Origin: an uncultured Candidatus Saccharibacteria bacterium
GTDB taxonomy: Bacteria; Patescibacteriota; Minisyncoccia; Phycocordibacterales; UBA12088
Length of the DNA: 64,000 nucleotides
Assembly: GCA_964567265.1 (NCBI GenBank)
Contig: CAZMLK010000001.1
Location: 91,311 to 155,310, forward strand
Direction of reading: 5' to 3'
Shown here: positions 41,991-61,380 of the stretch, piece after piece
Numbering within the stretch: position 1 is the stretch's first letter
Layout: each line of letters starts with the position of its first letter
Program-made: the position numbers and the translations under genes
The notes under the pieces: generated by a model
Told to the model about the DNA's origin: nothing
The model's database searches: none
Seen by the model: only the letters and a program-made list of their open reading frames with translations

Positions 41991-44159
41991 GTGAATGAGG
42001 ACGCTTTCAAGAACATGGTTTTTTACGACAAGTCACAAAAAAGAACGCAGTATTTCCACGCATCCCTGATCGGATTCGGCTGCTTCGTGTTCATCTCGGT
42101 CGCGTTCGCGCTCGCAGGCCTCTCGTTCCAGAAAGTCGGTGAGTACCGCACGGCAAAGGATGTCGCGTACAAACAGACCAATGACAAGGTCTTGGCGCTC
42201 ACGTTCGACGACGGACCGGATCCGGTCTTCACGCCGGAAATCCTCGCGATCCTGAAAGAAGAGAAGGTGCCGGGCACCTTCTTCGTGATCGGCGAGCACG
42301 TCATGGAGCATCCGAGCATCATCCGCGACATCAACGAGGCAGGGTTCGAGATCGGCAACCACACATACACCCACTCAGAGGCAGTGCATAATTCGCCGGC
42401 ACGCCTCCAGATCGAGCTCACGGCGACGGCGAAGGCGGTGGGGCAGATCACGGGCACGATGCCGCTCATGTATCGCCCGCCGTTCCTCCAGGACATCGGA
42501 CTCACCATGAACGGCGGACCGGTGCGCGAAGAGCAGCTTGAGGTCGCGCGCCAGCTCGGCTACGTCGTCGTCGGCGCCGACATCGAATCGCGCGACTGGG
42601 ATGCGGGCTCGGCCGAGCAGGTCGAGCAGATGGTGCGCGACAACCTGAAGGAAGGGCGGCACGTCATCCTCTTCCACGACGGCGGCGGTCCGGACCGCAC
42701 CAACACCATCAAGGCGCTCAAGAAGCTCATCCCTGAACTCAAGGCGGAAGGCTACACGTTCGTGCCCGCGTCCTATTTCTTCGGACTGAGCCAGAAGGAG
42801 GTAATGCCGCCGATCTCGTCGGTCACATCAATCGGTGACGGCGTCCTCTTTACCTACCTCCTCTTGATGGCGAAGCTCTCGGGAGCCATCGGCATCATCA
42901 CGCTCGCTGTCCTCGTGCTCACGTTCTTCCGCATCTCGACGATGCTCATCATGCGCTACGTGTTCGTCGCGGAGCAGAAGACCTACGGCAAGAAGCACGG
43001 CTATCGCGGAGCGGTCGCGGTCATCATTCCCGCATACAATGAAGAGGCGAACATCGATGCGACGATCACCAGCGTCATCGAGAACAGCCATCCGCCGGAC
43101 CAGGTCATCGTCGTCGACGACGGCTCGAAGGACAAGACGGCGGAGCGCGTGCGCGCGCTCATCGAGCACTATGGTGATCGGCTGCAGCTCATCCAGGTCA
43201 CGAACGGCGGCAAGGCGCGTGCGCTCAATATCGGCATCGCGTACGCACGCCCGAACATCGTCATCTGCATCGACGGCGACACCATTTTCCATCATGACGC
43301 GATCGCGAAGCTGATCCGCCATTTCGATGATCCGAAGGTCGGCGTTGTCGCTGGCAAGGTGGTGCCGGTCCGCGAGGAGACGCTCCTCGACAAGTTCCAG
43401 ATCGTCGAGTACATGATCGGGCAGAACATCGAGAAGGAAGTGCTCGCGGTCATGAACGCGGTCGGCGTGGTGCCGGGCGCGGTCGGCGCATGGCGGAAGA
43501 GCGTGATCCGCGCGCGCGATGGGTATCCGGAAGATACGATTGTCGAGGACCAGGACCTCACCCTCTCGTTCCTCGTGCAGGGGTACAAGATCGTGTACGA
43601 AGGGGAAGCGATCGCGTACACCGAGGCGCCGAACAACATCAAGGATTTCATGAAGCAGCGCTCGCGCTGGGTGTTCGGAACCTTCCAGTGCTTCTGGAAA
43701 TACCGGAAGCATGTGGGAAGCATGGAGCGTCCCAGCCTCGGCTGGATCGTGCTCCCGAACATCCTGCTTTTCAATACCATCCTCCCGCTCCTCACGCCGT
43801 TCATGGATATCTTCGCGCTGGTCACCATCCTCGAGGGCGGCGGCTTCAAAGGAGCTGTGATCGCGTTCTTCGTGTTCACGCTCATCGATATGACCTATGC
43901 CGCCCTCGCGATCGCGAGCGATCAGAATCCGCCGTACCGCCTCATCTGGACGGTAATCATCCAGCGCATCTTCTACCGCTACGCCATGTTCTATGTGGTC
44001 TCAGAAAGCATGATCAAGGCGATAAAGGGCAACATCGCGCCGAAGTCGCGCTGGAAGCCGCCGACCCGCCAGGGTCATGCGCAGGCAGCATTCGATGGCG
44101 TCAACCGGCTCGGCGGCCGGCCCGTCAAGCAGCCGATCACCGCGAGCATGTCGTCATAA
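41991..44159 (+). CDS. fused polysaccharide deacetylase (NodB/CE4) + processive family-2 glycosyltransferase (PgaB/PgaC- or IcaB/IcaA-like)
   Basis: N-terminal LTFDDGPDP...PGTFFVIGEH...NHTYTH (CE4 motifs). C-terminal VIIPAYNEE, VVDDGSKD, ICIDGDT, QRSRWVFGTFQ (QxxRW) with flanking TM helices. Confidence 0.85.
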   Translation: MNEDAFKNMVFYDKSQKRTQYFHASLIGFGCFVFISVAFALAGLSFQKVGEYRTAKDVAYKQTNDKVLALTFDDGPDPVFTPEILAILKEEKVPGTFFVIGEHVMEHPSIIRDINEAGFEIGNHTYTHSEAVHNSPARLQIELTATAKAVGQITGTMPLMYRPPFLQDIGLTMNGGPVREEQLEVARQLGYVVVGADIESRDWDAGSAEQVEQMVRDNLKEGRHVILFHDGGGPDRTNTIKALKKLIPELKAEGYTFVPASYFFGLSQKEVMPPISSVTSIGDGVLFTYLLLMAKLSGAIGIITLAVLVLTFFRISTMLIMRYVFVAEQKTYGKKHGYRGAVAVIIPAYNEEANIDATITSVIENSHPPDQVIVVDDGSKDKTAERVRALIEHYGDRLQLIQVTNGGKARALNIGIAYARPNIVICIDGDTIFHHDAIAKLIRHFDDPKVGVVAGKVVPVREETLLDKFQIVEYMIGQNIEKEVLAVMNAVGVVPGAVGAWRKSVIRARDGYPEDTIVEDQDLTLSFLVQGYKIVYEGEAIAYTEAPNNIKDFMKQRSRWVFGTFQCFWKYRKHVGSMERPSLGWIVLPNILLFNTILPLLTPFMDIFALVTILEGGGFKGAVIAFFVFTLIDMTYAALAIASDQNPPYRLIWTVIIQRIFYRYAMFYVVSESMIKAIKGNIAPKSRWKPPTRQGHAQAAFDGVNRLGGRPVKQPITASMSS

Positions 44160-44162
44160 ACA

Positions 44163-44207
44163 AAAAACCCACCGATTTGCACTAGTGCAAATCGGTGGGT
44201 TTTTTTG
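44163..44207. terminator. bidirectional intrinsic terminator
   Basis: aaaaaacccaccgatttgcac-tagt-gcaaatcggtgggttttttt between convergent genes. Confidence 0.7.
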
Positions 44208-44221
44208 ATGTGTGAAGTGAA

Positions 44222-45022
44222 TTATCGTCTCGTCGTCACCACCTTGGTCCAGGGACCCTTCGGCACCGCCGTGTCTTCGACGAAGCGCCACTCGACGTCT
44301 GAGATGTCGCCGACGCCGAGGCAGTCGCGCATCGCGGGCGAGAGGTCGATGCCTGCGCCCGCATCGAACGTGTTCTTCGATTTCATGTTGGTCCCGAATA
44401 CGTATGCGACATCGTCCTCCTCGAACGGACCGACATCTTGCCACTGCCCGTAGCAGGTCTTGTTTTTTCGCGTGACTTCGATCCAGTGGTTCTTGAGGAT
44501 CGATTTGCCGGCGCTGAGACTGAGCGCCTTCCCGGAATACCAATGCACGAGTGCAGCATTGTCCTTGCGGTCGCCTTCTTCGTCGAGATCGTTGTAGGGA
44601 AGCGCCACGTAGAACGGATTCTCCTTCGCGACGAACCGGCAGGGGTTGTATCCCGAGCGGCAGTCTGGGTCGTCGATGCCGCCATAGTGTTCCATCCACT
44701 GCTCGTCCCAGGCGCTCATGGCATTCGGAATGAAGTCGTTCGAGGCGTCCGCCTCTTCGCCTACCCAGAACACGGTCGCAATCGCGCTCTTGTAGCCGGT
44801 CTTGGTTGTCGTGGTAGTTGCGGTCGAGGTTGCAGTGGTCGTTCCTGCCAGCAATCCCTCAGGAGTGGTCGAGCTCGTTTCAGAAGATACAGAGGTGCTG
44901 GCGAATTCGAGGAAATTGTCATCGCTCGTGATTGGAGCAGTTTTGATGCCGTAGGCGAGGTATGCTGCCGCAGCGCCCACCGCCAACACAAAAAAGCCCA
45001 ATATCCCGAGCCATATTTTCAT
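44222..45022 (-). CDS. membrane-anchored secreted protein (hypothetical, Thr-rich linker + Cys-containing globular domain)
   Basis: Start at MKIWLGILGFFVLAVGAAAAYLAY. TTATSTATTTTTKTG linker. The C-terminal domain has conserved Cys (CRSGYNPC, CYGQWQDVGP, CLGVGD). Confidence 0.55.
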   Translation of the reverse strand: MKIWLGILGFFVLAVGAAAAYLAYGIKTAPITSDDNFLEFASTSVSSETSSTTPEGLLAGTTTATSTATTTTTKTGYKSAIATVFWVGEEADASNDFIPNAMSAWDEQWMEHYGGIDDPDCRSGYNPCRFVAKENPFYVALPYNDLDEEGDRKDNAALVHWYSGKALSLSAGKSILKNHWIEVTRKNKTCYGQWQDVGPFEEDDVAYVFGTNMKSKNTFDAGAGIDLSPAMRDCLGVGDISDVEWRFVEDTAVPKGPWTKVVTTRR

Positions 45023-45127
45023 GTGTGTTGTCAGCATAGAACCGCATGATACCATGGCAGCCGCAGCTCCCAAACGCCCGCGGTTGAGGCCCGATTTATT
45101 GGCAATCCATGTCCGAAATGGCAAGAT

Positions 45128-47845
45128 GTGGATACCACTTATTCATATCTATCCAGACTTTTCATGCACACATTCATGGCCCGTGCGCTGACCTCGGGAT
45201 TACTCGCATTGGTTGCGTTCTTCCCTACAGGAGCCCTGCTTGCCGAAACGGCCCCGGTGGCCGAGCCGCAAGCTACGGAGGCGGTCGCACCAGCTGCCGC
45301 CCCGCTCGATGGCCGGGGAAGCTCGATTCTTGTCGTGAAGGCGGCAAGCAACCCCTTCAGCGCATACTACGCCGAGATACTGCGCGCGGAGGGCTTCAAC
45401 AGCTTCACGTCGCTGGATCTTTCTCAAGTCACCGCGTCAGTCCTTTCGAGCTTCGATGTGGTCATCGTCGGCGACCTCTCGCTCACAGCCGCGCAGGTGA
45501 CGCTTTTCACGAATTACGTGAATGCGGGCGGCAACCTGATCGCGATGAGTCCGGACAAGAAGCTCTCCCCCTTGCTCGGCCTCACCGATGCATCCTCGAC
45601 CAGATCGAATGCGTATCTCCTCGTGAACACCGCGAATGATCCGGGAAAGGGAATCGTCGGTCAGACCATCCAGTATCACGGAAGCGCGGACCGCTATACC
45701 TTGAATGGCGCAACTGCGGTCGCTTCGATCTACTCGAGCGCGGCGACCAGCACTACGAATCCTGCGGTCTCCATCCGCTCGGTCGGCGGGAGCGGCGGAC
45801 AGGCAGCGGCATTCACGTTCGATCTCGCAAAATCCATCGTCTATTCGAGGCAGGGAAATCCGGCATGGTCCGGACTCGAGCGCGATGGCTCGGCACCCAT
45901 TCGTCCGAACGATCTTTTCTTCCCGGATTGGGTGAACTTGGACAAGGCGGTGATCCCGCAGGCGGATGAGCTCCAACGGCTCCTCGGCAACATGATCATA
46001 TATATGAATCAGGACAAGAAGCCGCTTCCGCGCTTCTGGTATTTCCCGAGCATGAAAAAAGCGGTCATCCTTATGAGCGGGGACGATCATGGGACCGTAG
46101 CGGGGACCAAGACCACATTCAATAATCTGATTGCGGCAAGCGCGCCTGGATGCGTCGTTGCGAATTGGGAATGCTACCGCGCGACATCGTGGCTCTATAC
46201 GAGCTCGCCGCTCACCAATGCCGAAGCGCTCGCGTATCACAACCAAGGATTCGAGATCGGCGTCCACGTGAGCACGAACTGCGCCGACTGGACTCCTGCG
46301 ACGCTTCCTGGATTCTTTACCAATGACCTCGCTGCGTTTGCTGCGAAGTACACCAGTCTTCCCGTGCAGCAGACCAGCCGCACGCACTGCATCGCCTGGA
46401 GCGATTATGCGACGCAGCCGAAGGTGGAACTCCAGAAAGGGATCCGGCTCGATGAGAACTATTACTACTGGCCGGCATCATGGGTCCAGAATCGCCCTGG
46501 CTTCATGACGGGTTCCGGCATCCCGATGCGGTTCGCCGATACGAATGGCGCACTCATCGATGTGTACCAGCAGCCGTCACATCTGGTGAATGAGAACGAC
46601 GTCAGCTATCCGGCCGGCATCAACAGCATGCTGGACAGGGCGCTCGGCGCTGAAGGGTACTACGGCGTCTTCGGCACGCACTACGACCACAGCGATGCGT
46701 TCGACAGCCAGCTCCTCGCGTCCGCGCAGACGCGGGGAGTCTCGCTGATTTCTGCCAAGCAGCTCCTCACGTGGTTGGATGGCCGTAATAATTCGACGTT
46801 CGGCACGACCACCTGGAACGGCAGCACGCTGACCTTCCCGGTAGTCGTCAGATCAGGCGCAGTGAACCTCTACACGATGATCCCGTTCAAGTCAGGCACG
46901 CTCCAGGTGACCGGCGTCAAGATCGGCGGATCGTCGGTCCCTTTCACCACCGACACGATCAAGGGCCGCGTGTACGCGCTCTTCAAGGTCACGAGCGGCA
47001 CGGTCGTCGCGACGTATGCGGCCGATACCGCGGCGCCAACGGTCGTCAGCGTCTCGCCCGCGAATGGCGCTCAGAATGTGAGCAGCAGTACGAATATCCT
47101 GATTACCTTCTCGGAAGCGATGACGGCCTCCTCGATCGGCACCTCGACCATCGAGCTCCGTGATCCCGCGAATGCGCTCGTCGCGCGTGCAGTGACTTAC
47201 AACACGGCCACCTTCACCGCGACGCTGAATCCGAACGCGAACTTACGCGCCTCGACGACCTACACCGTGAAGGTGAAGGGCGGCGCGACCGACCCGCGCG
47301 CGAAGGATGCATCGGGGAATGCGCTTGCCGTGAATTTCACGTCGACCTTCAAGATCTCCGCGACCGGCCAGGCGCCGACGGTGAGCCTCTGGAGCAGCAC
47401 CACGACTCCGGCTGTCGCCTCCGTGAATGATCCGAACGCGATCGAGCTCGGTGTGCGATTCCGTTCATCGGTCGCGGGTACGATTACCGGCATCAGGTTC
47501 TACAAGGGCGCTGCGAATACCGGCACGCATACAGGCACGCTCTGGAATGCGTCCGGGACATCGCTCGCGACAGGAACCTTTTCGGCAGAAAGCGCGACCG
47601 GCTGGCAGACGCTCATCTTCGCGAGTCCGGTCGCCATCACCGCGAACACGGACTACGTAGCCTCGTACTTCACCCCGACGGGGAATTACGCGGCCGACAG
47701 TAATTATTTTGCCGCAGCGCGCGTGAACGGCGTCTTGTCCGCGACGGCGGTCGTGAACGGGCTCTTCTCATACGGCCCGCACGCATTCCCGACTCAGAAT
47801 TTCCAGGCGACCAACTACTGGGTGGATGTGATCTTCCAGCCGTAG
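45128..47845 (+). CDS. large secreted surface protein with bacterial Ig-like domain and DUF4082
   Basis: Signal peptide. Ig-like segment TAAPTVVSVSPANGAQNVSSSTNILITFSEAM...TYTVKVKGGATD. DUF4082-like ELGVRFRSSVAGTITGIRFYKGAANTGTHTGTLW...TDYVASYF. Confidence 0.8.
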   Translation: MDTTYSYLSRLFMHTFMARALTSGLLALVAFFPTGALLAETAPVAEPQATEAVAPAAAPLDGRGSSILVVKAASNPFSAYYAEILRAEGFNSFTSLDLSQVTASVLSSFDVVIVGDLSLTAAQVTLFTNYVNAGGNLIAMSPDKKLSPLLGLTDASSTRSNAYLLVNTANDPGKGIVGQTIQYHGSADRYTLNGATAVASIYSSAATSTTNPAVSIRSVGGSGGQAAAFTFDLAKSIVYSRQGNPAWSGLERDGSAPIRPNDLFFPDWVNLDKAVIPQADELQRLLGNMIIYMNQDKKPLPRFWYFPSMKKAVILMSGDDHGTVAGTKTTFNNLIAASAPGCVVANWECYRATSWLYTSSPLTNAEALAYHNQGFEIGVHVSTNCADWTPATLPGFFTNDLAAFAAKYTSLPVQQTSRTHCIAWSDYATQPKVELQKGIRLDENYYYWPASWVQNRPGFMTGSGIPMRFADTNGALIDVYQQPSHLVNENDVSYPAGINSMLDRALGAEGYYGVFGTHYDHSDAFDSQLLASAQTRGVSLISAKQLLTWLDGRNNSTFGTTTWNGSTLTFPVVVRSGAVNLYTMIPFKSGTLQVTGVKIGGSSVPFTTDTIKGRVYALFKVTSGTVVATYAADTAAPTVVSVSPANGAQNVSSSTNILITFSEAMTASSIGTSTIELRDPANALVARAVTYNTATFTATLNPNANLRASTTYTVKVKGGATDPRAKDASGNALAVNFTSTFKISATGQAPTVSLWSSTTTPAVASVNDPNAIELGVRFRSSVAGTITGIRFYKGAANTGTHTGTLWNASGTSLATGTFSAESATGWQTLIFASPVAITANTDYVASYFTPTGNYAADSNYFAAARVNGVLSATAVVNGLFSYGPHAFPTQNFQATNYWVDVIFQP

Positions 47846-51626: not shown

Positions 51627-52431
51627 GGACTGTACTCCAAGTGGTTGAGTTCGGTACCTACCGCTTGTTGTCGTTCCCCGAAAGGAAGGACAGGAAGAGC
51701 GTGAAGCCGACCATGGTCTCGTAGTACTGGCCGACCACGTTGCGGAGAACCGCATAGCCGATGATGCGCATACGCGCTTGGATACGGAACCAGAACAAGA
51801 TGCGTTTCGCGTTCCGGAGGTCACGATTGATCTCGCGGAGCTTTGTCTGGTCAACGGGCGTCAGCATGGAAATCACCCTCTTTTTAGCTGTCGAAGAAGT
51901 CGAATTTGTCTGGGGAAAACATACCACGAATACGTAGTAATGTCAATATGTGGAAGGAAGGGAGTGAATCGATGCTCACCCCACTTTTTGACCAAAATCA
52001 ATTTCGTGCCCCGCGAATTTTTGAAAAAATTCGCGGGGCACTCTTCAAACACGCACGCAACACGAAAATAGCAAGTATGAATTCTTCATGCTCTCAAGGA
52101 CACGCTATCGGACACGGAAATTGGCGGCTCCATAGAGCCGTTTTGTCTCAGCCAAAACGGTTTGTTTGACAGTCTTTTAGTGTCGTTTTCCTCACGAAAG
52201 GTGTGTATTACTTCCTCACATTTTCCTCATACTCGATTGCTATTATGTTGCTCTCACCAAGGAATGGAGCAGGCGAATGTAGCCAGTGCCGGAAGCTCTA
52301 CCCCTTAATTCAGTCCCCGACTTGGGGGCGAGAGTTACCGAGCGGTGGCATATGGGAGGTCGGTTCCATAGGCTCCTTCCGAAAAGGTGAAGAACATTAC
52401 AAGCACTGATTAGCTATAAATTTACGTCTCA

Positions 52432-53970
52432 ATGAAAAGAATACTTCTCGGTATCGGGATGATCGTCTTCGTCAGCGCGATTGCTGCCGGAGCGACGGGC
52501 GCGTTTTTCTCTGATACGGAGACTTCGACCGGCAACACCTTCACTGCCGGAGCGATTGATCTCAAGGTGGACTCGACGCAGCATTACAACAACGCGGTCT
52601 GTACCAATGGCGTCTGGGTACTCGCGGCTGGCCAAACCATCGCCGTGGACCAGTATCCGGTCCTTGGAAGCGCATGTACTGGTTCATGGACCCTGACTGA
52701 TCTCGGGCCGACGAACCAGTTTTTTAATTTCGGCGACGTGAAGCCGGGCGATCGCGGCGAGAACACTGTTTCTCTCCACATCGATAACAACAATGCGTGG
52801 GCATGTCTTGATCTCCGCACCACAGGCAACAACGAGAATACGCTCGTCGAGCCGGAGTCGGATGCAGGTGATGTGACGCTTGATCCGTCAGGCGGTGAGC
52901 TCGCGCAGAACATCAAGGTGTTCTCATGGCTCGACAATGCATCTACGAGTGGTGCTATCCCAGGTGACAACATCTGGCAGGCAGGCGAGCCGATGTTGTT
53001 CTCGCCGGTCGCGCTTTCAGGTCTTGGCTCGACCACGACGCTTCCGCTTGCTGACTCAGTCACCAACGGCGGCGCGACGATGGCGCCGGGCGTGACGAGC
53101 TACATCGGCCTCTTCTGGTGCGCAGGCAACCTGACCGCGGTCGCCGGTGTCATCACTTGCGACGGCTCAGCGATGGGCAACCAGTCGCAGACGGACTCCG
53201 CAACGACCACGGTCTCATTCCGCGTCGTGCAGTCCCGGAACAATCCGACCTTCCAGTGCAGCAATCAGGTGGTCGTTGAGGAGCCAATCACGGTTACCGT
53301 GACGGCAAATGATCTCGATGCAGGACCTGCGGCTTCCGCCGCAACGAATGGTCTCGGCAAGTGGTTCATGTACAACGACACGACCGACGTGATCGATAAC
53401 AACCTCGGTACCTTCGTTGCAGGTCCGGCTGGAGTACCGAATGGCGCAAATAGCATCCAGTTCGTACTCGGTGCAAGCCCGCTTGATCGGAAGAATATCG
53501 CCACCTTCAAGTTCCAGGGAACAGTACTCTCGACCATCACTCAGATGGGCTTCGGGGTGTACTCGCACGGAGGAACAGGCGGAGCGGGTCCGAATGAGTC
53601 ACCATTCCTCGCATTCAATGTCGACTTCTTCAACACGGGCGTCTTCCAGAATCGCCTCGTCTATGTCCCGACCATCAATACCGGGGCAGTGCCGCAGGAC
53701 ACTTGGAATTCATATGACGTGATTGCAGGAGGCGCAGCGAAGTGGGTCTACTCAGGTGCAAACTGGCCAGCTCCAAACGCGCAGCCAGGCACTACGCCGA
53801 AGACATGGGCGCAGATCCTTGCTGATTATCCGAGCGCCAAGATTCTTGGACTCGGCGGATGGCTCGGAATCCGTGTCGGCGAGCCAGGACCGACCAACTA
53901 CATCGGCAATGTCGACTTCTTCAAGATCGCGACAGGCGGACCGGTGACGACGTACGACTTCGGCAACTAG
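52432..53970 (+). CDS. TasA/camelysin-like (peptidase M73 family) secreted protein with SipW-cognate signal peptide, paralog 1
   Basis: MKRILLGIGMIVFVSAIAAGATGAFFSDTETSTGNTFTAGAIDLKVD matches the SipW-cognate class leader (AFFSD-E-S-N-F-AG-LDL). Downstream FNFGDVKPGD matches the TasA NLSNLKPGD box. Confidence 0.8.
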   Translation: MKRILLGIGMIVFVSAIAAGATGAFFSDTETSTGNTFTAGAIDLKVDSTQHYNNAVCTNGVWVLAAGQTIAVDQYPVLGSACTGSWTLTDLGPTNQFFNFGDVKPGDRGENTVSLHIDNNNAWACLDLRTTGNNENTLVEPESDAGDVTLDPSGGELAQNIKVFSWLDNASTSGAIPGDNIWQAGEPMLFSPVALSGLGSTTTLPLADSVTNGGATMAPGVTSYIGLFWCAGNLTAVAGVITCDGSAMGNQSQTDSATTTVSFRVVQSRNNPTFQCSNQVVVEEPITVTVTANDLDAGPAASAATNGLGKWFMYNDTTDVIDNNLGTFVAGPAGVPNGANSIQFVLGASPLDRKNIATFKFQGTVLSTITQMGFGVYSHGGTGGAGPNESPFLAFNVDFFNTGVFQNRLVYVPTINTGAVPQDTWNSYDVIAGGAAKWVYSGANWPAPNAQPGTTPKTWAQILADYPSAKILGLGGWLGIRVGEPGPTNYIGNVDFFKIATGGPVTTYDFGN

Positions 53971-54096
53971 CAGGTTTTCTCTCTAGCCGTCGAGGAGCGG
54001 AACATCCGCTCCTCAGGGCTGGAGGGAATCCAGTCAAACGAAATTATCAGGATTATTACTAACCCGTGCGCGTAGGCGCACCTAACACAAGAACAG

Positions 54097-54999
54097 ATGA
54101 AAAGAATTCTTCTCGGAATGGGCATGATTATCTTCGTCTCGGCAATCGCCGCCGGAGCAACGGGAGCCTTCTTCTCCGACACGGAGACCTCGACAGGCAA
54201 CACCTTCACGGCGGGCGCGATCGACCTCACGGTCGACTCGACGCAGCACTACAACAATGCGATCTGTAAGGAGGTGACTGCAGGAATCTTCCAGTGGCAG
54301 CTTGCTCCAAACGCAGTGTTGGCAGTCGATCAGTATCCCGTTATCGGTACCCCATGTACGGGTACTTGGGCAGCGACCAATCTGGGTGCGCAGTTCCAGT
54401 TCTTCAACTTCGGTGACGTGAAGCCGGGAGATCAGGGCGAGAACACCGTTTCTCTCCACATTGAGAACAATCCGGCATGGGCATGTGCCTTCATCAAGAC
54501 GACGGGCAACAATGAGAACGATCTCATCGAGCCGGAAGCAGATGCGGGTGATGTGACCTTTGGTGCTGGAAATGGTGAGCTCGCGCAGAACATCTCGGTG
54601 TTCGGCTGGCTCGACAATGCATCCACCAGCGGTGCAGTCGTTGGTGACAACATCTGGCAGGCAGGCGAGCTCGCGCTCTTTGCAACGACGACACTCAGTG
54701 GTCTCGGCGGTGCAACAACGACGCTTCCGCTCGCAGATTCACTGAACGGCAATACGCCGCTTGCAGGCGGCTCGACCAGCTACATCGGCCTCTACTGGTG
54801 CGCAGGTACGCTGAACGCGGGCACTCCGGGTTCAGTGACGTGTAACGGCGCATCGATGGGCAATCAGGCGCAGACTGACTCTGCGACGACAACGGTCAGC
54901 TTCTATGTGGAGCAGGCCCGCAACAATCCAAACTTCACCTGTGCAGCGCACAGCGGAAATCCGGTACAGGTCAGTTTGATTGATGAATCAAATTTCTAG
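54097..54999 (+). CDS. TasA/camelysin-like secreted protein, paralog 2
   Basis: The N-terminal 60 aa are near-identical to paralog 1 (MKRILLGMGMIIFVSAIAAGATGAFFSDTETSTGNTFTAGAIDLTVD). FNFGDVKPGD box. Confidence 0.8.
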   Translation: MKRILLGMGMIIFVSAIAAGATGAFFSDTETSTGNTFTAGAIDLTVDSTQHYNNAICKEVTAGIFQWQLAPNAVLAVDQYPVIGTPCTGTWAATNLGAQFQFFNFGDVKPGDQGENTVSLHIENNPAWACAFIKTTGNNENDLIEPEADAGDVTFGAGNGELAQNISVFGWLDNASTSGAVVGDNIWQAGELALFATTTLSGLGGATTTLPLADSLNGNTPLAGGSTSYIGLYWCAGTLNAGTPGSVTCNGASMGNQAQTDSATTTVSFYVEQARNNPNFTCAAHSGNPVQVSLIDESNF

Positions 55000-55137
55000 C
55001 TTCTAGTTTCTCTCTAGCCGTTCAGGGGCGACCATTTCCCCGTCGCTCCTGCGGGCTGGAGAGACCCCGACTCTCATTCAGCTCCAGGCTTTATTATCGC
55101 GACGGGGAAATCGCGGACAGTTAAGACAAGAACAGCG

Positions 55138-56568
55138 ATGAAAAAGATCTTACTCAGCATTGCGATGGTGGCGCTCCTCTCGGGCGGCGTCATCGGCGCG
55201 ACCGGTGCATTCTTCAGTGACACCGAGACCTCAAGCGGCAATACCTTTGCCGCCGGCGCGATCGACCTCAAGGTCGACAACGAGTCGTATTACAACGGCA
55301 ACAAGTGCGTGGACGCGGACGGTGACGGACCGGGCCTCGAGCACATCTGGCAGGGTGCCGCGCTCTACCCGTCACCGGGCAGCGAATGCGATACGTCGTT
55401 CCCAGCGAGCGATCTCGACAACGGTCTCTTCTTCTTCCACTTCGAGGACCTGAAGCCGGATGATGAAGGCGAGGACACTATCTCGCTCCATGTCGACAAC
55501 AATGATGCCTACGCCTGCATGGATCTCACGCTCACCTCGAATGATGACAAATCATCGAATGAGCCTGAGCTCGAAGTCGATGCGCCTGAGGATATCAACA
55601 ACACCTGGGATGGCGAGCTTGCGGGCGCGCTCCAGTTCTTCTGGTGGGCGGACGACGGCGACAATGTCTATGAAGACAATGAGCAGACGATTTCCGGCGG
55701 CGTGAAGACGCTTATGGATCTCGCATCGACGACGGGACCGTTCTCAGTCGCGCTTGCAGACTCGGTATCGAATGTCTGGGGCACTCCGGGTCCGATTCCT
55801 GGCAATCAGACGAGGTACATCGGCAAGGCGTGGTGCTTCGGAACGCTGACCTTGAACCCGCTTCCACAGGGGCAGGGACTGAGTCCGTCAGTCGCAACCG
55901 GCGTCACTTGTAACGGCACTTCGCTCGGCAATCTCTACCAGACGGACGGCGTGACGCTTGATGTCGCGTTCCGCACCGTGCAGGCCCGCCACAATCCGAC
56001 CTTCCAGTGCGGTAATACGCAGACTCGGACCGCGAAATTGACGGTCGTGAAGCAGATCATCAATGACAACGGCGGCAACAATGTTGTCCCAGACTTCCAG
56101 CTCAAGGTGGTTGGCACGGTGGTGACTCCGGTCACGAGCGGTGCGACGACCACTCTTGCGGTCGGAAACTACACGGTCACTGAGACGGGCGTCTCCGGGT
56201 ACGTTGCCTCATTCAGCGGCGATTGTAATGCATCCGGACAGATCACGCTTGTAGCAGGCGATGAGAAGATTTGTTACATCACCAACAATGACCTTCCAGC
56301 GAATATCACGCTGATAAAGAACGTCGTTGGCGGAGTTGCGGACCCCGTCCAGTTCTCGATGCGCGTTGATGCAGGTCTCGTGCAGAACAACACGTCGGTC
56401 GCGGTCACCTCGAATGCAGTGCACACAATCACTGAAGATGCGTTCCCTGGGTATCACTTCACCTCGATCACTGGCGCGGGCTGCCCAGCAACGCTTCCAG
56501 GTAATGTCAGTTTGACCGAAGGACAGGCAATCGTTTGTACGATTACGAACACGGCAAACGGAAACTAG
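55138..56568 (+). CDS. TasA/camelysin-like secreted protein, paralog 3, with two C-terminal Ig/prealbumin-like beta-sandwich repeats
   Basis: MKKILLSIAMVALLSGGVIGATGAFFSDTETSSGNTFAAGAIDLKVD. FEDLKPDD box. C-terminal tandem ~85-aa repeats, each ending C-x-ITN. Confidence 0.8.
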   Translation: MKKILLSIAMVALLSGGVIGATGAFFSDTETSSGNTFAAGAIDLKVDNESYYNGNKCVDADGDGPGLEHIWQGAALYPSPGSECDTSFPASDLDNGLFFFHFEDLKPDDEGEDTISLHVDNNDAYACMDLTLTSNDDKSSNEPELEVDAPEDINNTWDGELAGALQFFWWADDGDNVYEDNEQTISGGVKTLMDLASTTGPFSVALADSVSNVWGTPGPIPGNQTRYIGKAWCFGTLTLNPLPQGQGLSPSVATGVTCNGTSLGNLYQTDGVTLDVAFRTVQARHNPTFQCGNTQTRTAKLTVVKQIINDNGGNNVVPDFQLKVVGTVVTPVTSGATTTLAVGNYTVTETGVSGYVASFSGDCNASGQITLVAGDEKICYITNNDLPANITLIKNVVGGVADPVQFSMRVDAGLVQNNTSVAVTSNAVHTITEDAFPGYHFTSITGAGCPATLPGNVSLTEGQAIVCTITNTANGN

Positions 56569-56651: not shown

Positions 56652-57200
56652 GTGAAGACACTCACAAACATCTTCTACACAATCTTCGTAGCGCTCCTCA
56701 TTGGGATCGCGCTCATGCTCCTTGCCACGATGGTACCGATTCCCGGCAACATCGAGGTCAAGATCGTGAAGTCGGGCTCGATGGAGCCGACCATCCACAC
56801 GGGCTCCCTCGTCGTGGTGAAGCCGGAGGCTGACTACAAGGTCGGCGACATCATCACATTCGGGGCGGATACGAAGACGCAGATCCCGACGACGCACCGC
56901 ATCATCGCGGACCAGGTCGCGGACGGGAAGATCTACTACACCACCAAGGGTGATGCGAACGAGGAGCAGGATTCGAACAAGACCCCGAAGGAGCTCGTGA
57001 TCGGGAAGGTGATCTTCACCCTCCCGTACGCGGGATTCATCACGGACTTCGCTCGGACCAAGCTCGGCTTCGTGCTCTTGATTGCGCTCCCGGCAGGCAT
57101 CGTCATCATCGACGAGCTCATGACCATCTGGGGCGAGGCAGCCGCGCTCCGCAGGAAGAAGAAAGCCGTCGTGGCGGAAGACACACGCAATGATTCCTAG
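56652..57200 (+). CDS. sipW: type I signal peptidase, SipW/archaeal-eukaryal (SPC18-like) type
   Basis: N-terminal TM. IVKSGSMEPTIHTGSLVVV (SGSMEP Ser box with downstream His). GDIITF. C-terminal TM LGFVLLIALPAGIVII. 182 aa. Confidence 0.8.
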   Translation: MKTLTNIFYTIFVALLIGIALMLLATMVPIPGNIEVKIVKSGSMEPTIHTGSLVVVKPEADYKVGDIITFGADTKTQIPTTHRIIADQVADGKIYYTTKGDANEEQDSNKTPKELVIGKVIFTLPYAGFITDFARTKLGFVLLIALPAGIVIIDELMTIWGEAAALRRKKKAVVAEDTRNDS

Positions 57201-59361
57201 TCCCTACCAAAAAAGCATAGTGAGCATGGATGGCGTCGTCCTCGTGGCGCGCCCGAAGAAGCAGGCGCTCCGCTCGCGCGCGTTCATGACGGACGGCATC
57301 CTGCCACCCGCGCGCCCGCTTGCGGCCGCGCGGGTGGCAGACGCGATCGTCGAGACCGCGCACGGCGTCGGCCGCGCCGCGAAGGGGCTCGCCTTCACCC
57401 TCCTCCTCTCCATCGTCTCGATCAACTTCACCGGCATCGGCTACACGCATGCGTACTTCAACGACAACGAGACCTCGACGAGTAACAAGTTCAACGCCGG
57501 CCTCATCGACTTCGACGCGCTCATCACCGCGAGCTCCTCAGCATTCGCGCGCATCAACTGCACGCCGCACGCGACCAGCTCGCAGATGATCGAGATCAAG
57601 CCGAACGCGAGCTCGAACCCGTTCAAGTACTATCCCGATGTCGACAACATGGGCGGCGACGAGTGCTTCTGCAACCAGATCGACGTCACCGCGTACCTGA
57701 ATGGCGTGAAGGTGTACAAGGGCCCGCTCGCAGGCCTCTCCTCGACCGCGACCACGACGACCGGCACGTGGAAATTCGAATTCTCGACCTCGGTCAACAC
57801 CGCGAACTACATGTGCTCCTATGATGTCGCCTTCAAGGGCTGGCAGACGCGCCACAACTATCCGTCGTACGAGCATGGCGGCTACACCGACATCGAGCGC
57901 GTGCACAATACGCTCTCCTCATGGGGCATCCGCATCAACAAGGTGTATGACGACGTCGGTCCCGGTCGCGGCGCCGAGGGCGACAACGAATGGGTGGAGC
58001 TTTACAACCAGACCAATACATCTATCAACCTCACGGGATGGAAGCTTTGCGACGGCGCGCTCTGTGATGCGTTCCCGACGACCACGAAGCGCATTCCTGC
58101 GGGAGGATTCGCGCTCGTGACCTCCGCGACCTCGACCTTCGACTACTGGAACGTGCCCTCCGGCATCCAGCGCATCGTGCTTCCGGACGGCCGCATCGGG
58201 GACGGCCTCGGCGATCACGCGGACATGCTCGTCCTCAAGCGTCCGGATGGCGCCATCGTCGATCAGATGAACTGGGGTACCATGAGCCCGGCATGGGTAA
58301 ACGTGAATGCGGATGTCTGGAGCCCGGGCGTCACCGATGATGCGGAAGGGAGCATGCTTGCCCGGAAGCCGACCGGATTCGACACGAACAGCGTCTCCGA
58401 CTGGGTGTCGCTCCTCCCGCCTGTCATCGATCTCGTGTCTCCTGACGAGGGTGACTTCGGCGCGATCTGGAAGCAGGGCGAGGTCCACAACATCCTCTGG
58501 ACTGCGCACAATCAGAACGGTCCGGATTCCGCACTCAAGATTGGCCTCTATCTCATCAAGGATACGAATGGCAACCATGTCATCGACAAGAATGACACCA
58601 TAAAAACCATCACCGCGAAGACCGACAATGACGGCCAGTACCAGTACAAGGTGCCGGGCGGATTCAAGGGCGACGCATGGATCCGCGCGATCGCGACGGG
58701 GCCTGAGAATCCGCTTGCGAACTCGATGACGACGAGCGGCAAGTTCACCATCGAGAAGCCGAAGAAGGGCGGCGGCGGGAATGACAATAGCGGCGAATGC
58801 GCGCTCGGCGATTTCGCACCCGATGATGACAGCGACTACGGCCACGACAAGCTCTTCGGGAAGATCGACGAGAAGATGAATTTCCTCGATGGCATCAACG
58901 CGGAGCTTGAGGAAAAAATCAACGACAAGCTTGATGATCTGCAGAGCAAGGTCGATGGACTCCTCGCGGGCGCGGGTGCCGCTGACTTCGGCGATGACGA
59001 CGAAGATGCCGCTCCGGCTGCAAGCGCGGATACGTCCTCAACCGGGACGACCACTGAAGCAGCTGCTCCGGAAAAGCCAGAGAAGCCGACGGCACCGGAG
59101 AAGCCCGAAAAGCCGAGCGATGTGGAGGAGCATATCGCGCCGAAGCAGGATGACGGCGGTTCGACTGCGGATGTTCCCGCTGATACGGGAAAAGCGCCTG
59201 GCTCGGATGATGACGAGACCGCGCTCCACGAGGACCAGAAAGATACGGTCGTGTCAGAGGCGCATGACAATACGTCGCCGGTCGTTCCGCCGACTCCGGT
59301 TGCACCCGAAAAGCCGACGGCACCAGTCAAGCCGACCGCGCCAACGAAGCCGACACACTAG
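57190..59361 (+). CDS. secreted protein with SipW-cognate-like leader, lamin-tail domain (LTD) and Pro/Lys/Thr-rich C-terminal tail
   Basis: Leader ...LLLSIVSINFTGIGYTHAYFNDNETSTSNKFNAGLIDF. LTD GEGDNEWVELYNQTNTSINLTGWKLCDG. C-terminal PEKPEKPTAPEKPEKP low complexity. Confidence 0.75.
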   Translation: MIPSPYQKSIVSMDGVVLVARPKKQALRSRAFMTDGILPPARPLAAARVADAIVETAHGVGRAAKGLAFTLLLSIVSINFTGIGYTHAYFNDNETSTSNKFNAGLIDFDALITASSSAFARINCTPHATSSQMIEIKPNASSNPFKYYPDVDNMGGDECFCNQIDVTAYLNGVKVYKGPLAGLSSTATTTTGTWKFEFSTSVNTANYMCSYDVAFKGWQTRHNYPSYEHGGYTDIERVHNTLSSWGIRINKVYDDVGPGRGAEGDNEWVELYNQTNTSINLTGWKLCDGALCDAFPTTTKRIPAGGFALVTSATSTFDYWNVPSGIQRIVLPDGRIGDGLGDHADMLVLKRPDGAIVDQMNWGTMSPAWVNVNADVWSPGVTDDAEGSMLARKPTGFDTNSVSDWVSLLPPVIDLVSPDEGDFGAIWKQGEVHNILWTAHNQNGPDSALKIGLYLIKDTNGNHVIDKNDTIKTITAKTDNDGQYQYKVPGGFKGDAWIRAIATGPENPLANSMTTSGKFTIEKPKKGGGGNDNSGECALGDFAPDDDSDYGHDKLFGKIDEKMNFLDGINAELEEKINDKLDDLQSKVDGLLAGAGAADFGDDDEDAAPAASADTSSTGTTTEAAAPEKPEKPTAPEKPEKPSDVEEHIAPKQDDGGSTADVPADTGKAPGSDDDETALHEDQKDTVVSEAHDNTSPVVPPTPVAPEKPTAPVKPTAPTKPTH

Positions 59362-59363: not shown

Positions 59364-60815
59364 ATGCACGCACTTCGAAATCTATTCCTCGGGTTCTCCG
59401 CATTCCTGGTCCTTGCTGGGAGCGCTCCCTATGTCGCGAACGCAGCGAATCTCGATGTCGTCTTCGAAGCGACGCCGCTTTTCAGCGAGGCGAACATCTT
59501 GCCCGGTGATACGGTGACGAGAAGTGCGCAGGTCTCGAACCTCACCGACGCGCCGCAGGATGTGTACGTGAAGGCGGTGAACGCTGCATTCTCAGGCACG
59601 CTCTCGGACGCGCTCACGATTACGGTGAAGAAGGGCGCGACGACGTATTTCTCCGAAAGCCTCACTGCATTCCTCGATGGCACCCCGCGCGCGCTGACCC
59701 AAGATCTTGCCGCATCTGATAGCGAGGAGTACGCGTTCATCGTCTCCTTCGCACCCGGCTCGGCCAATGAGTACCAGGATGATTCCGTCGTATTTGATTT
59801 CTGTATTGGATTCGCAGGCGGTCCGAACACTTGTATCACTGACGGTGTGGGTGGCGACAAGGGCGAAGCGACAATCGCCTCCTTTGGGGGCGAGTCACAT
59901 GGAGGCGGAGACGGGCCGAATGCATCGAGGGCGGCTGACAGCGGCTCTGGAGGCGGAAACGGAGGAGGTGGAACAGGTGGAAACGGCGGCGGTGCGGGTG
60001 CGCTCGTCATCTTCAACGAGAAGGCGAGCGGTATCAATGATGCTGCGGGAAATGCCGCGATCACTTGGAACACCAACATGCCGGCGACCAGCCGCGTGGT
60101 GTATGGCCCGCGTCCGGACGCCGCGGTCCCGTTCCCGTATGTGCTCGATGTGACCGATCAAAATTTTGGCTATCCGAATACGACGGTCGAGAATCCGCTC
60201 CTCGCGGAAATACATGGCGAGATTATTGAAGGGCTGGCGCCCGGGACCTACGTCGCACGTGTCGTGTCGCGCACGATTCCAGGCGGAGCGGAAACCGTCT
60301 CTCCGCAGTTCACCTTCACGCTCGCGCCGAATGGCACGCTGACGTTTGCACGCGCCGCCGGCACGACCGGAAGCGGGAATGTGTTTGGGAAGGGGGCCGG
60401 CGGCGGAAGCAGCGAAGCGACGACGACCGAGGAGGTCGGCGGATTCTTTGAGACGCTGACGCTTCCAGCCATCGACAATGGCGGTCCGATCGATCAGGCG
60501 GCTGCCGCCGCACTTTCGGTCCCCGCATGGCTCGCTGACAATCTTTCATGTCTTGCGATAGCGCTCGCCATACTCGTCTTCGCATACATCGCGTGGTCCC
60601 TCTTCGACCGCCGACGCGGCCACCACTATGACCACATCGAGCGCGCGAAGATCCGGAATGCATACTTCCTCGCGGGCTCATCGCTCGGGATCATTCTCAT
60701 GGCCGTTCTCGGATATCTCTGCGTCCTCCCGTTTCTCCTTTTCTTCGCGATCGTGTTCCTCATCTGGTACATCGTGCTCTTCTTCCAGGAGCGGGATGAG
60801 GAAGGGGATTGGTAA
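59364..60815 (+). CDS. secreted, C-terminally membrane-anchored protein (possible fibre anchor/assembly factor)
   Basis: Signal peptide. Gly-rich tract GGGNGGGGTGGNGGGAG. FN3-like segment ITWNTNMPATSRVVYG. Two C-terminal TM helices. Confidence 0.65.
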   Translation: MHALRNLFLGFSAFLVLAGSAPYVANAANLDVVFEATPLFSEANILPGDTVTRSAQVSNLTDAPQDVYVKAVNAAFSGTLSDALTITVKKGATTYFSESLTAFLDGTPRALTQDLAASDSEEYAFIVSFAPGSANEYQDDSVVFDFCIGFAGGPNTCITDGVGGDKGEATIASFGGESHGGGDGPNASRAADSGSGGGNGGGGTGGNGGGAGALVIFNEKASGINDAAGNAAITWNTNMPATSRVVYGPRPDAAVPFPYVLDVTDQNFGYPNTTVENPLLAEIHGEIIEGLAPGTYVARVVSRTIPGGAETVSPQFTFTLAPNGTLTFARAAGTTGSGNVFGKGAGGGSSEATTTEEVGGFFETLTLPAIDNGGPIDQAAAAALSVPAWLADNLSCLAIALAILVFAYIAWSLFDRRRGHHYDHIERAKIRNAYFLAGSSLGIILMAVLGYLCVLPFLLFFAIVFLIWYIVLFFQERDEEGDW

Positions 60816-61196
60816 TCGCGCAGATTGACCGGCGGATATTTTCATAGTAAAACGATGGCAGACAAACCAGCGGAGGGCTTTGCATGTTTGATCTGTTTAC
60901 TGCCCGAGACGCTACTCGGCAACTCATTGCGGCAGCACTGACCGCGATCGTCATTTCGCCATACGGCTACGCTCCTGGGGGGATGTACGCCGCGCCTTGG
61001 TGGGAGCCCAGCTGGTCCCGTGCATCTCCATCAGTCCCGTCATTTCGCAAAAAGAAGCGGAGGCTGTTGGCAGCGAAGCAAAAACGAAAGAAGCGTGTAC
61101 GGCCGAACAAGCGGTATCAGCGTTCACTGCGGTAACTTCGCAATCACACAAAGTGGCCTATGCCGAAAGAGTAGGGAGAATCTAGTATGGGCTGGG

Positions 61197-61340
61197 GATA
61201 TGCGTGGCGACATTGGGTGGCGCGGAAGCAGGCGCTTGCAAAGCGGAAGCGTCGCCAAATTGACCAGCTTGCCGCCGCGGAAGCGCAAGGGAAGCCGAAG
61301 CGCAGACGCGGCCCGATATCGTTGTGGTGATGGGGAAGCC
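61197..61340 (+). CDS. possible 47-aa basic Trp/Arg-rich small protein
   Basis: RBS gggaga upstream. MGWGYAWRHWVARKQALAKRKRRQIDQLAAAEAQGKPKRRRGPISLW. Strong terminator at 61332-61380. Confidence 0.35.
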
Positions 61341-61380
61341 CCCGGCCGGTCAGAATGACCGGCCGGGGGCGCACTTTTTG
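61332..61380 (+). terminator. intrinsic terminator
   Basis: ggggaagcccccggccggtc-agaat-gaccggccgggggcgc + actttttg. Confidence 0.7.

Follow-up and report, generated by a model that had tools for sequence, protein, structure and literature searches.

A protein encoded immediately after sipW in a cluster of TasA-like genes, carrying a lamin-tail domain (LTD) behind a SipW-type leader, is most likely a conserved accessory part of TasA-like fibre operons that is described in no paper we found. The window, i.e., the whole 64,000-nucleotide stretch of DNA analysed here (positions 91,311–155,310 of contig CAZMLK010000001.1), originates from an uncultured Candidatus Saccharibacteria bacterium. The preliminary description of the window had suggested a minor or adaptor role in the fibre for this LTD protein; this is the best-supported reading of the present results, the fibre being a predicted one.

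The putative fibre locus and the start of the LTD gene

The locus contained the following features:

52432–53970, + strand: TasA-like paralog 1, 512 aa (TIGR04088, 23.4 bits; PF12389, 24.8 bits)
54097–54999, + strand: TasA-like paralog 2, 300 aa (TIGR04088, 25.3 bits; PF12389, 25.9 bits)
55138–56568, + strand: TasA-like paralog 3, 476 aa (TIGR04088, 22.6 bits; PF12389, 23.4 bits; PF19403, 41.6 bits)
56652–57200, + strand: SipW-type (archaeal/ER-type) signal peptidase I, 182 aa (TIGR02228, 114.7 bits; cut-off, 51.85)
57190–59361, + strand: LTD protein gene, whole ORF including the stop codon, 723 aa, overlapping sipW by 11 nt
59364–60815, + strand: conserved downstream partner, 483 aa, syntenic in at least 17 loci
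61338–61370, + strand: strong terminator-like hairpin (15-bp stem with 13 G–C pairs), the first such site 3′ of the cluster

Paralog 1 has a short leader (MKR...ATGA followed by FFSDTETSTGNTFTAGAIDL) and an extra C-terminal domain, paralog 2 is 71% identical to paralog 1, and paralog 3 carries C-terminal SpaA_2 prealbumin-like domains. The PF12389 matches of these major paralogs were confined to the leader and donor region; in paralog 1, the score exceeded the cut-off of 22.5 but covered profile positions 7–51 only. The signal peptidase matched NF046067 (E = 6.7e-35) with a score below the equivalog cut-off. Its translation contains the motifs SGSMEP, THRI and GDAN, N- and C-terminal transmembrane (TM) segments and a basic cytoplasmic C-tail.

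The sipW stop codon ends at 57200 and the ATG of the LTD gene lies at 57190, in agreement with the 11-nt overlap given in the preliminary description. As no Shine–Dalgarno-like motif was found before any gene of the locus or any candidate LTD start, the start codon was chosen from comparative evidence. M1 is likely the start, because the alignment with L011, the nearest distinct homologue at 49% identity, begins at residue 1. The block DGVVLVAR, upstream of M33, is conserved as EGIVIVPR in L011, which has a single start codon upstream of this block (codon 30 being the next possibility in frame) and whose start also overlaps sipW. The public gene call of a 99% identical copy begins at M13. A true start at a downstream Met without a signal peptide had been named as a possible objection; M1, M13 and M33, however, all precede the TM leader.

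Leader and domain architecture of the LTD protein

The LTD protein was divided into the following segments:

57190–57387, + strand: N-extension, aa 1–66, net charge +6, predicted cytoplasmic, low pLDDT
57388–57453, + strand: hydrophobic leader/TM segment, aa 67–88, ending in ...GYTHA, with a TIGR04088 match
57454–57513, + strand: donor-strand-like segment, aa 89–108, YFNDNETSTSNKFNAGLIDF, aligning with FFSDTETSTGNTFTAGAIDL of the paralogs
57514–57927, + strand: N-domain, aa 109–246, pilin-like β-sandwich with invariant C161 and C209 and conserved GWQTRHNYP
57928–58401, + strand: LTD, aa 247–404 (Pfam match at aa 247–363)
58402–58770, + strand: Ig-like third domain, aa 405–527, of the Kre9/KNH/Psg1 type
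58771–59358, + strand: acidic low-complexity disordered tail, aa 528–723, pLDDT < 50 except for a helix

The cognate_SipW model TIGR04088 (NCBIfam) matched aa 82–104 with 20.6 bits against a cut-off of 19 (E = 3.6e-4). Profile–profile alignment (hhalign) of the leader with those of the three upstream paralogs extended over 29 columns (E = 1.1e-6, probability 91%), pairing THAYFNDNETSTSNKFNAGLIDF in the LTD protein with TGAFFSDTETSTGNTFTAGAIDL in the paralogs. These matches bear out the proposed kinship with the paralogs' leaders. The leader had been called a degenerate TasA-type leader; its SipW type stands, whereas the term ‘degenerate’ does not, given a score above the curated cut-off and a donor-strand motif kept whole. 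The JGI name of P0006, a RiPP precursor, is the old title of TIGR04088 and was rejected, a 723-aa multidomain protein being no peptide precursor. Based on alignment to the TasA reference site A27↓A28-F29-N30-D31 (PMC9674648), the SipW cleavage site of the LTD protein is predicted at A88↓Y89. Conservation continues well past this site over the entire donor strand, with the equivalents of TasA F29 and F39, and all family members share D92, E94, N99 and F108. The donor motif nevertheless differs systematically from that of the major subunits, whose strands are almost invariant across genomes (AFFSDTETSTGNTFTAGAIDL); because of this near invariance, co-variation of the two kinds of strand per genome was uninformative. 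Residues 83–102 were disordered (pLDDT < 50) in both AlphaFold models, the three domains were modelled with confidence, and a helix was placed at residues 44–81.

The basic N-extension is a family trait, ranging in length from about 0 to 170 aa and mostly rich in K/R. In two relatives (L024 and L042), the segment corresponds to the linker of in-frame SipW fusions, and three others (L005, L008 and L010) have short, ordinary n-regions. The N-domain between the leader and the LTD was overlooked in the preliminary description, to which this 66-aa extension and the Ig-like domain after the LTD are also to be added.

The N-domain is probably a divergent TasA/camelysin-type domain, and its relatives match the TasA, camelysin and BsaA models (PF12389, NF046066 and TIGR04090). 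The LTD protein itself scored 14.7 bits against PF12389, below the cut-off of 22.5 and over aa 73–109 alone, that is, the leader and donor region. Searches of the PDB with N-domain profiles returned no chain at E up to 10, including those of TapA (6HQC and 6QAY), and sequence-profile searches of the PDB with the N-domain, the paralogs or the downstream family did not find TasA, TapA or camelysin. Likewise, no TapA model in Pfam or NCBIfam matched the LTD protein, and Foldseek with the whole model returned just multi-Ig strings such as macroglobulin and complement, at uninformative TM-scores of about 0.13. A probable TasA-like domain of its own counts against reading the LTD protein as an end subunit and would allow an in-chain position.

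The PF00932 match (aa 247–363, E = 2.3e-12) reached 47.7 bits against a gathering cut-off of 34.3, substantiating the clear lamin-tail domain that had been recognised by eye. The domain has an Ig-like β-sandwich fold like that of the lamin tail and was matched in all 33 of the aligned family members. The tail had been characterised as proline/lysine-rich. This holds for its PEKP repeats (59068–59115 and near the C-terminus; PEKPEKPTAPEKPEKP at aa 627–642 and PEKPTAPVKPTAPTKP at aa 706–721) but not for its overall composition, which is mainly acidic (residues 528–723: D 15%, A 13%, P 11%, E 9% and K 8%; net charge −31). A helix is predicted within it at aa 563–593 (58876–58968), and the C-termini of homologues are similarly acidic and rich in E/P/T.

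Conservation and gene order in Patescibacteria

The family has a fixed architecture in Patescibacteria, consisting of a basic N-extension, TM leader, donor-like segment, N-domain, LTD, Ig domain and acidic tail, and the leader, its motif and all domains are conserved in about 50 homologues. The gene order of TasA-like gene(s), sipW and LTD gene was shared by 26 distinct loci of Patescibacteria, the assignment to this phylum being based on the records of the homologues. At 17 or more of these loci, the gene for the membrane-anchored downstream protein comes next. Among the loci examined, LTD proteins outside Patescibacteria had no sipW nearby, except for one sipW–LTD locus (L035) in a MAG labelled Gammaproteobacteria. 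The proposed accessory subunit was present in sampled Kaiser-, Taylor-, Campbell-, Portnoy-, Gottesman-, Chisholm- and Roizmanbacteria, always with the LTD.

The sipW stop and the LTD start overlap by 4–26 nt in most loci, with a single possible start codon in several of them, and SipW, linker, leader and LTD are fused in frame in L024 and L042. The retention of these overlaps in many genomes, together with the fusions, backs the translational coupling to sipW that had been suggested earlier. SipW peptidase domains also occurred in two more proteins among 74 sampled relatives of the N-domain. At the other extreme of domain content, two minimal relatives (L040 and L048) consist of the leader, donor strand and LTD only, as does the LTD half of both fusions, and further relatives bear extra Ig, DUF5011 and CBM96 modules.

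In the downstream partner, an ordinary signal peptide is followed by an N-domain, then by a Gly-rich linker and an FN3-like domain, and TM segments lie at the C-terminus. Its N-domain starts straight at NLDVVFE...PLF...PGD, without a donor-strand segment. Members of this family matched PF16656 (6/10), fn3 (4/10) and PF12389 (1/10, E = 1e-3). Profile alignment (hhalign) of its N-domain with that of the LTD protein gave a probability of 22%, and alignment of the family with the paralogs gave 0.8%, values at which homology is not established; a profile search of the PDB with the family matched just Fn3 domains and Gly-linker noise. The downstream protein is a candidate for anchoring the fibre in the membrane or for terminating it, with a weak tie of its N-domain to TasA.

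Proposed role and comparison with known systems

We regard it as moderately probable that the LTD protein is a functional analogue of TapA and AbpB, cleaved by SipW after A88, providing the first strand for a major subunit and placing its LTD at one end of the fibre. For cleavage, strand donation, stoichiometry, fibre position and the role of the LTD, we infer the following course. Because its start overlaps the sipW stop, the LTD protein may be translated in step with SipW, and coupled translation would in turn hold its amount below that of the three major TasA-like paralogs. It would enter the membrane with the basic N-extension on the cytoplasmic side and be cut by SipW after A88 (THA↓YFND). 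The freed unstructured N-terminal strand (YFNDNETSTSNKF...) could then insert into the β-sandwich of a major subunit, thereby starting or capping the polymer, so that its own sandwich, probably TasA-like, might come to lie at one fibre end together with the LTD, the Ig-like domain and the acidic tail. There the LTD would bind as the head, acting as an adhesin or as an envelope anchor. The downstream membrane protein is likely an acceptor-only base anchor, as it has what may be a similar N-domain, without the donor strand, as well as C-terminal TM segments; with this protein at the base, the LTD protein is proposed to lie at the distal tip.

Alternatively, the LTD protein could be a regular in-chain subunit, which both donates and accepts strands and is interspersed among the others, its LTD and Ig modules decorating the shaft. 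A donor strand combined with a full, probably TasA-like sandwich would suit this position, and the ‘major’ paralogs 1 and 3 also possess extra C-terminal domains. However, each locus has one copy of the LTD gene, overlapping sipW, against one to three separately placed major-subunit genes; the donor motif departs from the major one as described above; and the minimal relatives, having no sandwich, cannot accept a strand. We judge an in-chain subunit distinctly unlikely. The protein might instead be an independent surface or matrix protein (an adhesin, a binder of extracellular polymer or DNA, or a wall-associated protein) that shares just export and processing with the fibre. What TIGR04088 defines is a class of signal peptides and not a fibre; many secreted and cell-surface proteins, nucleases among them, contain LTDs (PMC6085458); and the Ig, DUF5011 and CBM96 modules of relatives are as in adhesins. 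Nevertheless, the conservation beyond the cleavage site over the whole donor strand, with the equivalents of both TasA phenylalanines, and the strict synteny with TasA-like genes argue against such independence, which appears unlikely.

An uncleaved leader, in which the basic N-extension and the TM segment form a signal anchor and the LTD protein a membrane-tethered base holding the fibre to the cell, would account for a positive N-extension that is unusually long for a cleaved signal and conserved in the family. It would also accord with the co-localisation of TapA with the membrane (PMC10151520). We nonetheless consider it improbable to a high degree: the SipW cleavage motif is intact and is kept even in the SipW fusions, where the module can be freed in no other way than by cleavage; several relatives have short n-regions; and an uncleaved N-terminus could not act as a free donor strand. 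An annotation artefact, with the true start at a downstream Met lacking the signal or the ORF being no real gene, is already contradicted by the comparative sequence data and can be regarded as extremely improbable. The missing Shine–Dalgarno motifs and the public gene call at M13 would be compatible with it, but all candidate starts lie ahead of the TM leader, the leader, motif and domains are conserved in about 50 homologues, and the similarity to L011 begins at residue 1.

Patescibacteria represent a considerable part of bacterial diversity. They seem to live attached to host cells, and apart from type IV pili little is known of their attachment structures. The locus points to a second, TasA-type fibre system in these bacteria and offers a candidate full parts list of a polar donor-strand fibre, comprising major subunits, peptidase, cap and membrane anchor. 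A bolder and rather doubtful extension is that LTD-tipped TasA-like fibres are a phylum-wide organelle of Patescibacteria, whose LTD head binds the host envelope or extracellular DNA/polymer for epibiotic attachment or scavenging and not for biofilm scaffolding. If this were true, the SipW–leader–LTD fusions would be self-processing peptidase–substrate units, the downstream TM protein would act as a specialised anchor that only accepts strands, and the whole would form a complete polar donor-strand fibre system needing neither chaperone nor sortase. The accessory subunit gives the bacterial LTD a concrete, testable role, and the natural series from donor strand plus LTD to four-domain proteins and peptidase–substrate fusions could be useful in dissecting TapA-like initiators.

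The preliminary description had considered the protein not to be a described component of TasA operons. This is right for the LTD, for which we found no paper joining ‘lamin tail domain’ with SipW or TasA-type fibres and no mention in the top-ranked Patescibacteria/CPR papers, but not for the role, as TapA and AbpB are described analogues. Like other bacterial LTD proteins such as the extracellular nuclease ExeM, the protein carries a canonical LTD in a secreted or cell-surface context; bacterial LTDs have as yet no established role (PMC6085458). Unlike in ExeM-type proteins, no hydrolase domain is present and the LTD is tied to a SipW leader and a fibre operon; a nuclease- or hydrolase-linked LTD protein was rejected, as there is no catalytic domain. 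FimH, PapH and the basal pilins of chaperone–usher and sortase pili have unrelated assembly machinery, another strand polarity and another secretion route, and offer an analogy only. With the TasA/camelysin/BsaA family (PF12389, NF046066 and TIGR04090), the LTD protein shares the leader and donor-strand motif and, in its N-domain, a β-sandwich fold of similar size. It stays under the PF12389 cut-off, however, its ‘PGD’ strand motif is degenerate, and most of its mass (LTD, Ig domain and tail) has no counterpart in TasA. AbpB (Pcal_0909), the minor component of archaeal bundling pili, has been proposed as the source of the first complementing strand for a TasA-superfamily pilin, with its distal β-domains acting as adhesins (PMC9245690). 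AbpB differs in its archaeal origin and in lacking both an LTD and a dedicated SipW at its locus, and no sequence relationship was seen.

TapA (YqxM) of the Bacillus subtilis tapA-sipW-tasA operon is a SipW substrate, as proposed for the LTD protein, and for each, a single gene overlapping sipW accompanies the gene(s) of the major subunit. The N-terminal segment is flexible in both and similar to the donor strand of the major subunit; in TapA this segment donates a strand, and the disordered donor-like segment in our AlphaFold monomers mirrors it (PMC10151520; PMC9674648). Both also combine a stable β-sandwich bearing a Cys pair with a long charged disordered C-tail, which in TapA correspond to the C92–C188 disulfide and a dispensable tail (PMC10151520). 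The minimal relatives with a donor strand and LTD parallel the finding that TapA residues 44–57 suffice for biofilm formation (PMC10151520). In contrast, no sequence similarity was detected past the leader motif, and the LTD protein is not a TapA family member at the sequence level. Its gene follows sipW, whereas tapA precedes it; it is three times larger, with an LTD, a Kre9/KNH-like Ig domain and a 66-aa basic N-extension; and its sandwich is probably TasA-like, whereas that of TapA has been assigned a macroglobulin-like (PMC9245690) or V-set Ig fold (PMC10151520). Overall, the functional anatomy of the LTD protein agrees with the TapA pattern and supports the view that it may work like TapA, as distinct from belonging to the same family.

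Gene cluster and its surroundings

The lamin-tail domain (LTD) protein is encoded within six closely packed genes on the + strand, between 52.4 and 60.8 kb of the window, with successive intergenic spacers of 126, 138, 83, -11 and 2 nt.

Genes of the cluster
52432-53970, + strand, TasA-like paralog 1, paralog leader pattern
54097-54999, + strand, TasA-like paralog 2, paralog leader pattern
55138-56568, + strand, TasA-like paralog 3, paralog leader pattern
56652-57200, + strand, signal peptidase sipW, 182 aa
57190-59361, + strand, LTD protein ORF, 723 aa
59364-60815, + strand, downstream protein ORF, 483 aa

The three paralogs (major subunits) share the leader MK(R/K)ILL...ATGAFFSDTETS(T/S)GNTF(T/A)AGAIDL. 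Their matches to PF12389 (TasA/camelysin family) were confined to the leader and donor region, leaving the paralog cores unclassified; paralog 1 has an additional C-terminal domain of ~220 aa, and paralog 3 contains SpaA_2 prealbumin-like domains. The donor segment of the major subunits, AFFSDTETSTGNTFTAGAIDL, was near-identical between genomes (window 52432-56568; loci L001-L024), and the major subunit proteins of the same genomes were <50% identical outside it. The sipW product is an archaeal/ER-type signal peptidase I (TIGR02228, 114.7 bits vs. a cut-off of 51.85), for which SipW was the best named match (E=6.7e-35), yet under the SipW equivalog cut-off.

The first strong hairpin of terminator type on the + strand has a 15-bp stem (61338-61370). 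An 83-aa basic ORF (60884-61135) lies between the cluster and this hairpin; it had no Pfam match and is annotated as a gene in L007, a public copy. The ~575 nt ahead of the first TasA-like gene (51855-52431) contained no convincing ORF, and an Rfam scan of this interval returned nothing at gathering thresholds; the interval may serve the operon as a long promoter or regulatory leader. The window is chromosomal, also encoding LepA, MurJ, TsaD, ABC transporters and tRNAs, and its relatives were all Patescibacteria MAGs. Further large envelope genes were found nearby (38814-47845), encoding a 1029-aa protein with DUF11 and peptidoglycan-binding domains, a 722-aa polysaccharide-deacetylase/GT2 fusion and a 905-aa protein with Big_5 and DUF4082.

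Architecture of the LTD protein

A search over 5.8 billion proteins yielded 53 relatives, ~45 of which covered four fifths of the LTD protein at 35-50% identity; those with a named source were from Patescibacteria. The architecture below is based on the family alignment and on full-length and domain-only AlphaFold models.

Regions of the LTD protein
aa 1-66, basic N-extension (low confidence)
aa 67-88, hydrophobic leader
aa 89-108, donor-strand-like segment YFNDNETSTSNKFNAGLIDF; D92, E94, N99 and F108 invariant
aa 109-246, N-domain, eight-strand β-sandwich (confident, pLDDT 85-97)
aa 247-404, LTD
aa 405-527, Ig-like domain (confident model; Kre9_KNH and Psg1 matches in relatives)
aa 528-723, disordered acidic tail with a single predicted helix (aa 563-593)

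Profile searches recovered both the LTD and the SipW-type leader claimed in the preliminary description: PF00932 (LTD) matched aa 247-363 (E=2.3e-12; 47.7 bits vs. a gathering threshold of 34.3), and TIGR04088, the SipW-cognate signal-peptide model, matched aa 82-104 (20.6 bits vs. a cut-off of 19). Profile comparison aligned the leader with those of the paralogs over 29 columns spanning the cleavage site and further (E=1.1e-6). Both assignments, as an LTD protein and to the SipW-cognate signal class, are bona fide; judged by its sequence, the protein is not a member of the TapA family. TasA is cleaved at A27|A28, with residues 28-38 as donor strand (PMC9674648), and alignment with TasA places the predicted SipW site of the LTD protein at A88|Y89. 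Residues 83-102 had pLDDT <50 in both types of model. The N-extension ranges from ~0 to 170 aa within the family and is mostly K/R-rich, and the N-domain carries a GWQTRHNYP motif and two invariant cysteines (C161 and C209). The tail had been called proline/lysine-rich; this fits its PEKP repeats (aa 627-642 and 706-721) but not the tail overall, which is acidic (net charge -31; D+E 24% vs. K 8%).

As previously noted, the ATG of the LTD protein (57190) and the sipW stop share an overlap of 11 nt. Since no Shine-Dalgarno motif pointed to a start codon, the start was judged by comparative data. In the locus of the nearest distinct homologue (L011, 49% identity), the alignment runs from residue 1 and includes the block 5' of M33; L011 has a single start codon 5' of this conserved block, with codon 30 as its next in-frame candidate, and this single start overlaps sipW by 14 nt. 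A public annotation of a 99% identical copy starts the gene at M13. Since the transmembrane (TM) leader (aa 67-88) is retained with every start, the concern that the real start might lack a signal peptide does not hold. Comparative data also excluded an annotation artefact.

A sequence-profile search with the N-domain for solved structures gave no match, and only the leader and donor part of this region aligned with the paralogs. Matches for the N-domain included many donor-strand-complemented pilins, such as CfaE/CfaB, MyfA, EcpD, AggA and SafD. A leader-less profile of its core identified 1190 cluster representatives (50% identity; E≤1e-3) among 1.84 billion. Among 74 sampled representatives, an LTD was present in 43, a PF12389 match in 38 (best E=2.6e-10), a TIGR04088 match in 25 and a match to the TasA equivalog model in eight. 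When ten short relatives were scanned singly, PF12389 matched to profile position 79 in four and up to position 140 of 196 in one, thus extending past the leader; certain short relatives consist of nothing but leader, donor strand, N-domain and acidic tail. The N-domain probably belongs to the TasA/camelysin superfamily as a divergent member, with the LTD protein itself outside Pfam membership (14.7 bits vs. the PF12389 threshold of 22.5). LTD-less proteins of 190-290 aa with SipW leader, donor strand, N-domain and acidic tail (P0121, P0144, P0129, P0169 and P0114) resemble TapA counterparts in size and layout.

Conservation of the cassette in Patescibacteria

Gene context was surveyed by exact-protein look-ups and a scan at one genome per species, followed by phmmer over the fetched loci. 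The order TasA-like gene(s)-sipW-LTD gene occurred in 26 distinct Patescibacteria loci, with a homologue of the downstream membrane protein next in at least 17. No sipW was found near LTD proteins of Chloroflexota, archaea or Myxococcota. Most loci showed an overlap of 4-26 nt between the sipW stop and the LTD start, and several had just one possible LTD start codon. A second mini-cassette lies upstream of the main one on the same contig at L005:5718-7411 (also in L006 and L015); in it, a short S24/S26 peptidase of 135 aa immediately precedes a 428-aa protein with TM, LTD and Ig domain and without the FSD.E donor motif.

Single ORFs in L024 (Chisholmbacteria; 6194-7507) and L042 (6143-7474) joined SipW, a basic linker, a TM leader and an LTD, with the leader motif AFFSDTEQS or AFFQDDET; two further SipW-domain fusions were among the 74 sampled N-domain relatives. 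The L024 and L042 ORFs are natural peptidase-substrate fusions, which imply self-processing or trans-processing. Such in-frame fusions argue strongly that SipW processes the LTD protein, and they account for the basic N-extension, which would be the cytoplasmic loop linking the last SipW TM segment to the substrate leader. Minimal relatives, for example in L048 (234 aa) and L040, contained only leader, donor strand and LTD, as did the LTD half of both fusions. Because of these minimal relatives and fusions, the invariant, phylum-wide core of the family is, from sequence comparison, a predicted SipW-cleavable donor strand joined to an LTD. The donor strand of the major subunits was near-invariant across genomes, whereas that of the LTD proteins was recognisable and systematically different, ending for example in D-F rather than D-L.

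Possible role in the fibre

We propose that the LTD protein is the initiator or cap subunit of the fibre, displaying its LTD at one end. A decorated subunit within the chain is possible, given that the protein owns a sandwich, but the single sipW-coupled copy and the minimal forms without the sandwich count against it. Conservation of the entire donor strand and strict synteny likewise speak against an independent SipW-dependent surface protein. An uncleaved signal anchor is also disfavoured, as the cleavage motif is intact even in SipW fusions and some relatives have short n-regions.

The downstream protein has an ordinary signal peptide and conserved synteny. Its N-domain begins at the exact point where a donor strand would end (NLDVVFE...PLF...PGD); the protein also has a Gly-rich linker, an FN3/Pur_ac_phosph_N-like domain and TM segments at its C-terminus. 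Some Microgenomates carry this type of N-domain fused to an LTD (P0050, P0051, L025:6188-7495 and L024:7443-8843). The downstream protein is plausibly a membrane anchor that only accepts a strand, in which case the LTD protein would be located at the distal tip, an arrangement known from chaperone-usher and sortase pili. This placement is the least secure step of the proposal because the downstream protein is weakly similar to TasA-like domains.

Databases automatically give relatives the name 'lamin tail domain-containing protein' or that of TIGR04088. Our literature search found no paper combining LTD with SipW or linking LTD to TasA-type fibres, and its top-ranked Patescibacteria/CPR papers did not mention LTD; PF12389 homologues in Patescibacteria have already been noted (PMC9245690). 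What appears new here is a putative TapA/AbpB-like accessory subunit with an LTD head, kept across the sampled Patescibacteria lineages and including peptidase-substrate fusions. LTDs have been suggested to target proteins to membranes or membrane-associated structures, and an LTD contributes partially to ExeM nuclease activity (PMC6085458). With the present finding, bacterial LTDs gain a role that can be tested, and an understudied phylum gains a candidate attachment fibre.

We infer every functional step for the LTD protein. Bacillus TasA polymerises via N-terminal donor-strand exchange, and TapA, encoded by a gene overlapping sipW, is a SipW substrate of low abundance (PMC9674648, PMC10151520). 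The N-terminus of TapA is flexible and resembles the donor strand of TasA, its Ig-like domain is very stable and contains a disulfide, and its disordered tail is dispensable; as first strand donor, it can be placed only at the filament beginning (PMC9674648, PMC10151520). AbpB of archaeal bundling pili has been proposed to act like TapA, with distal β-domains as adhesins (PMC9245690). The LTD protein shares each of these anatomical features of TapA/AbpB, on which its proposed role as initiator or cap is based, and differs in its additional LTD and Ig domain.
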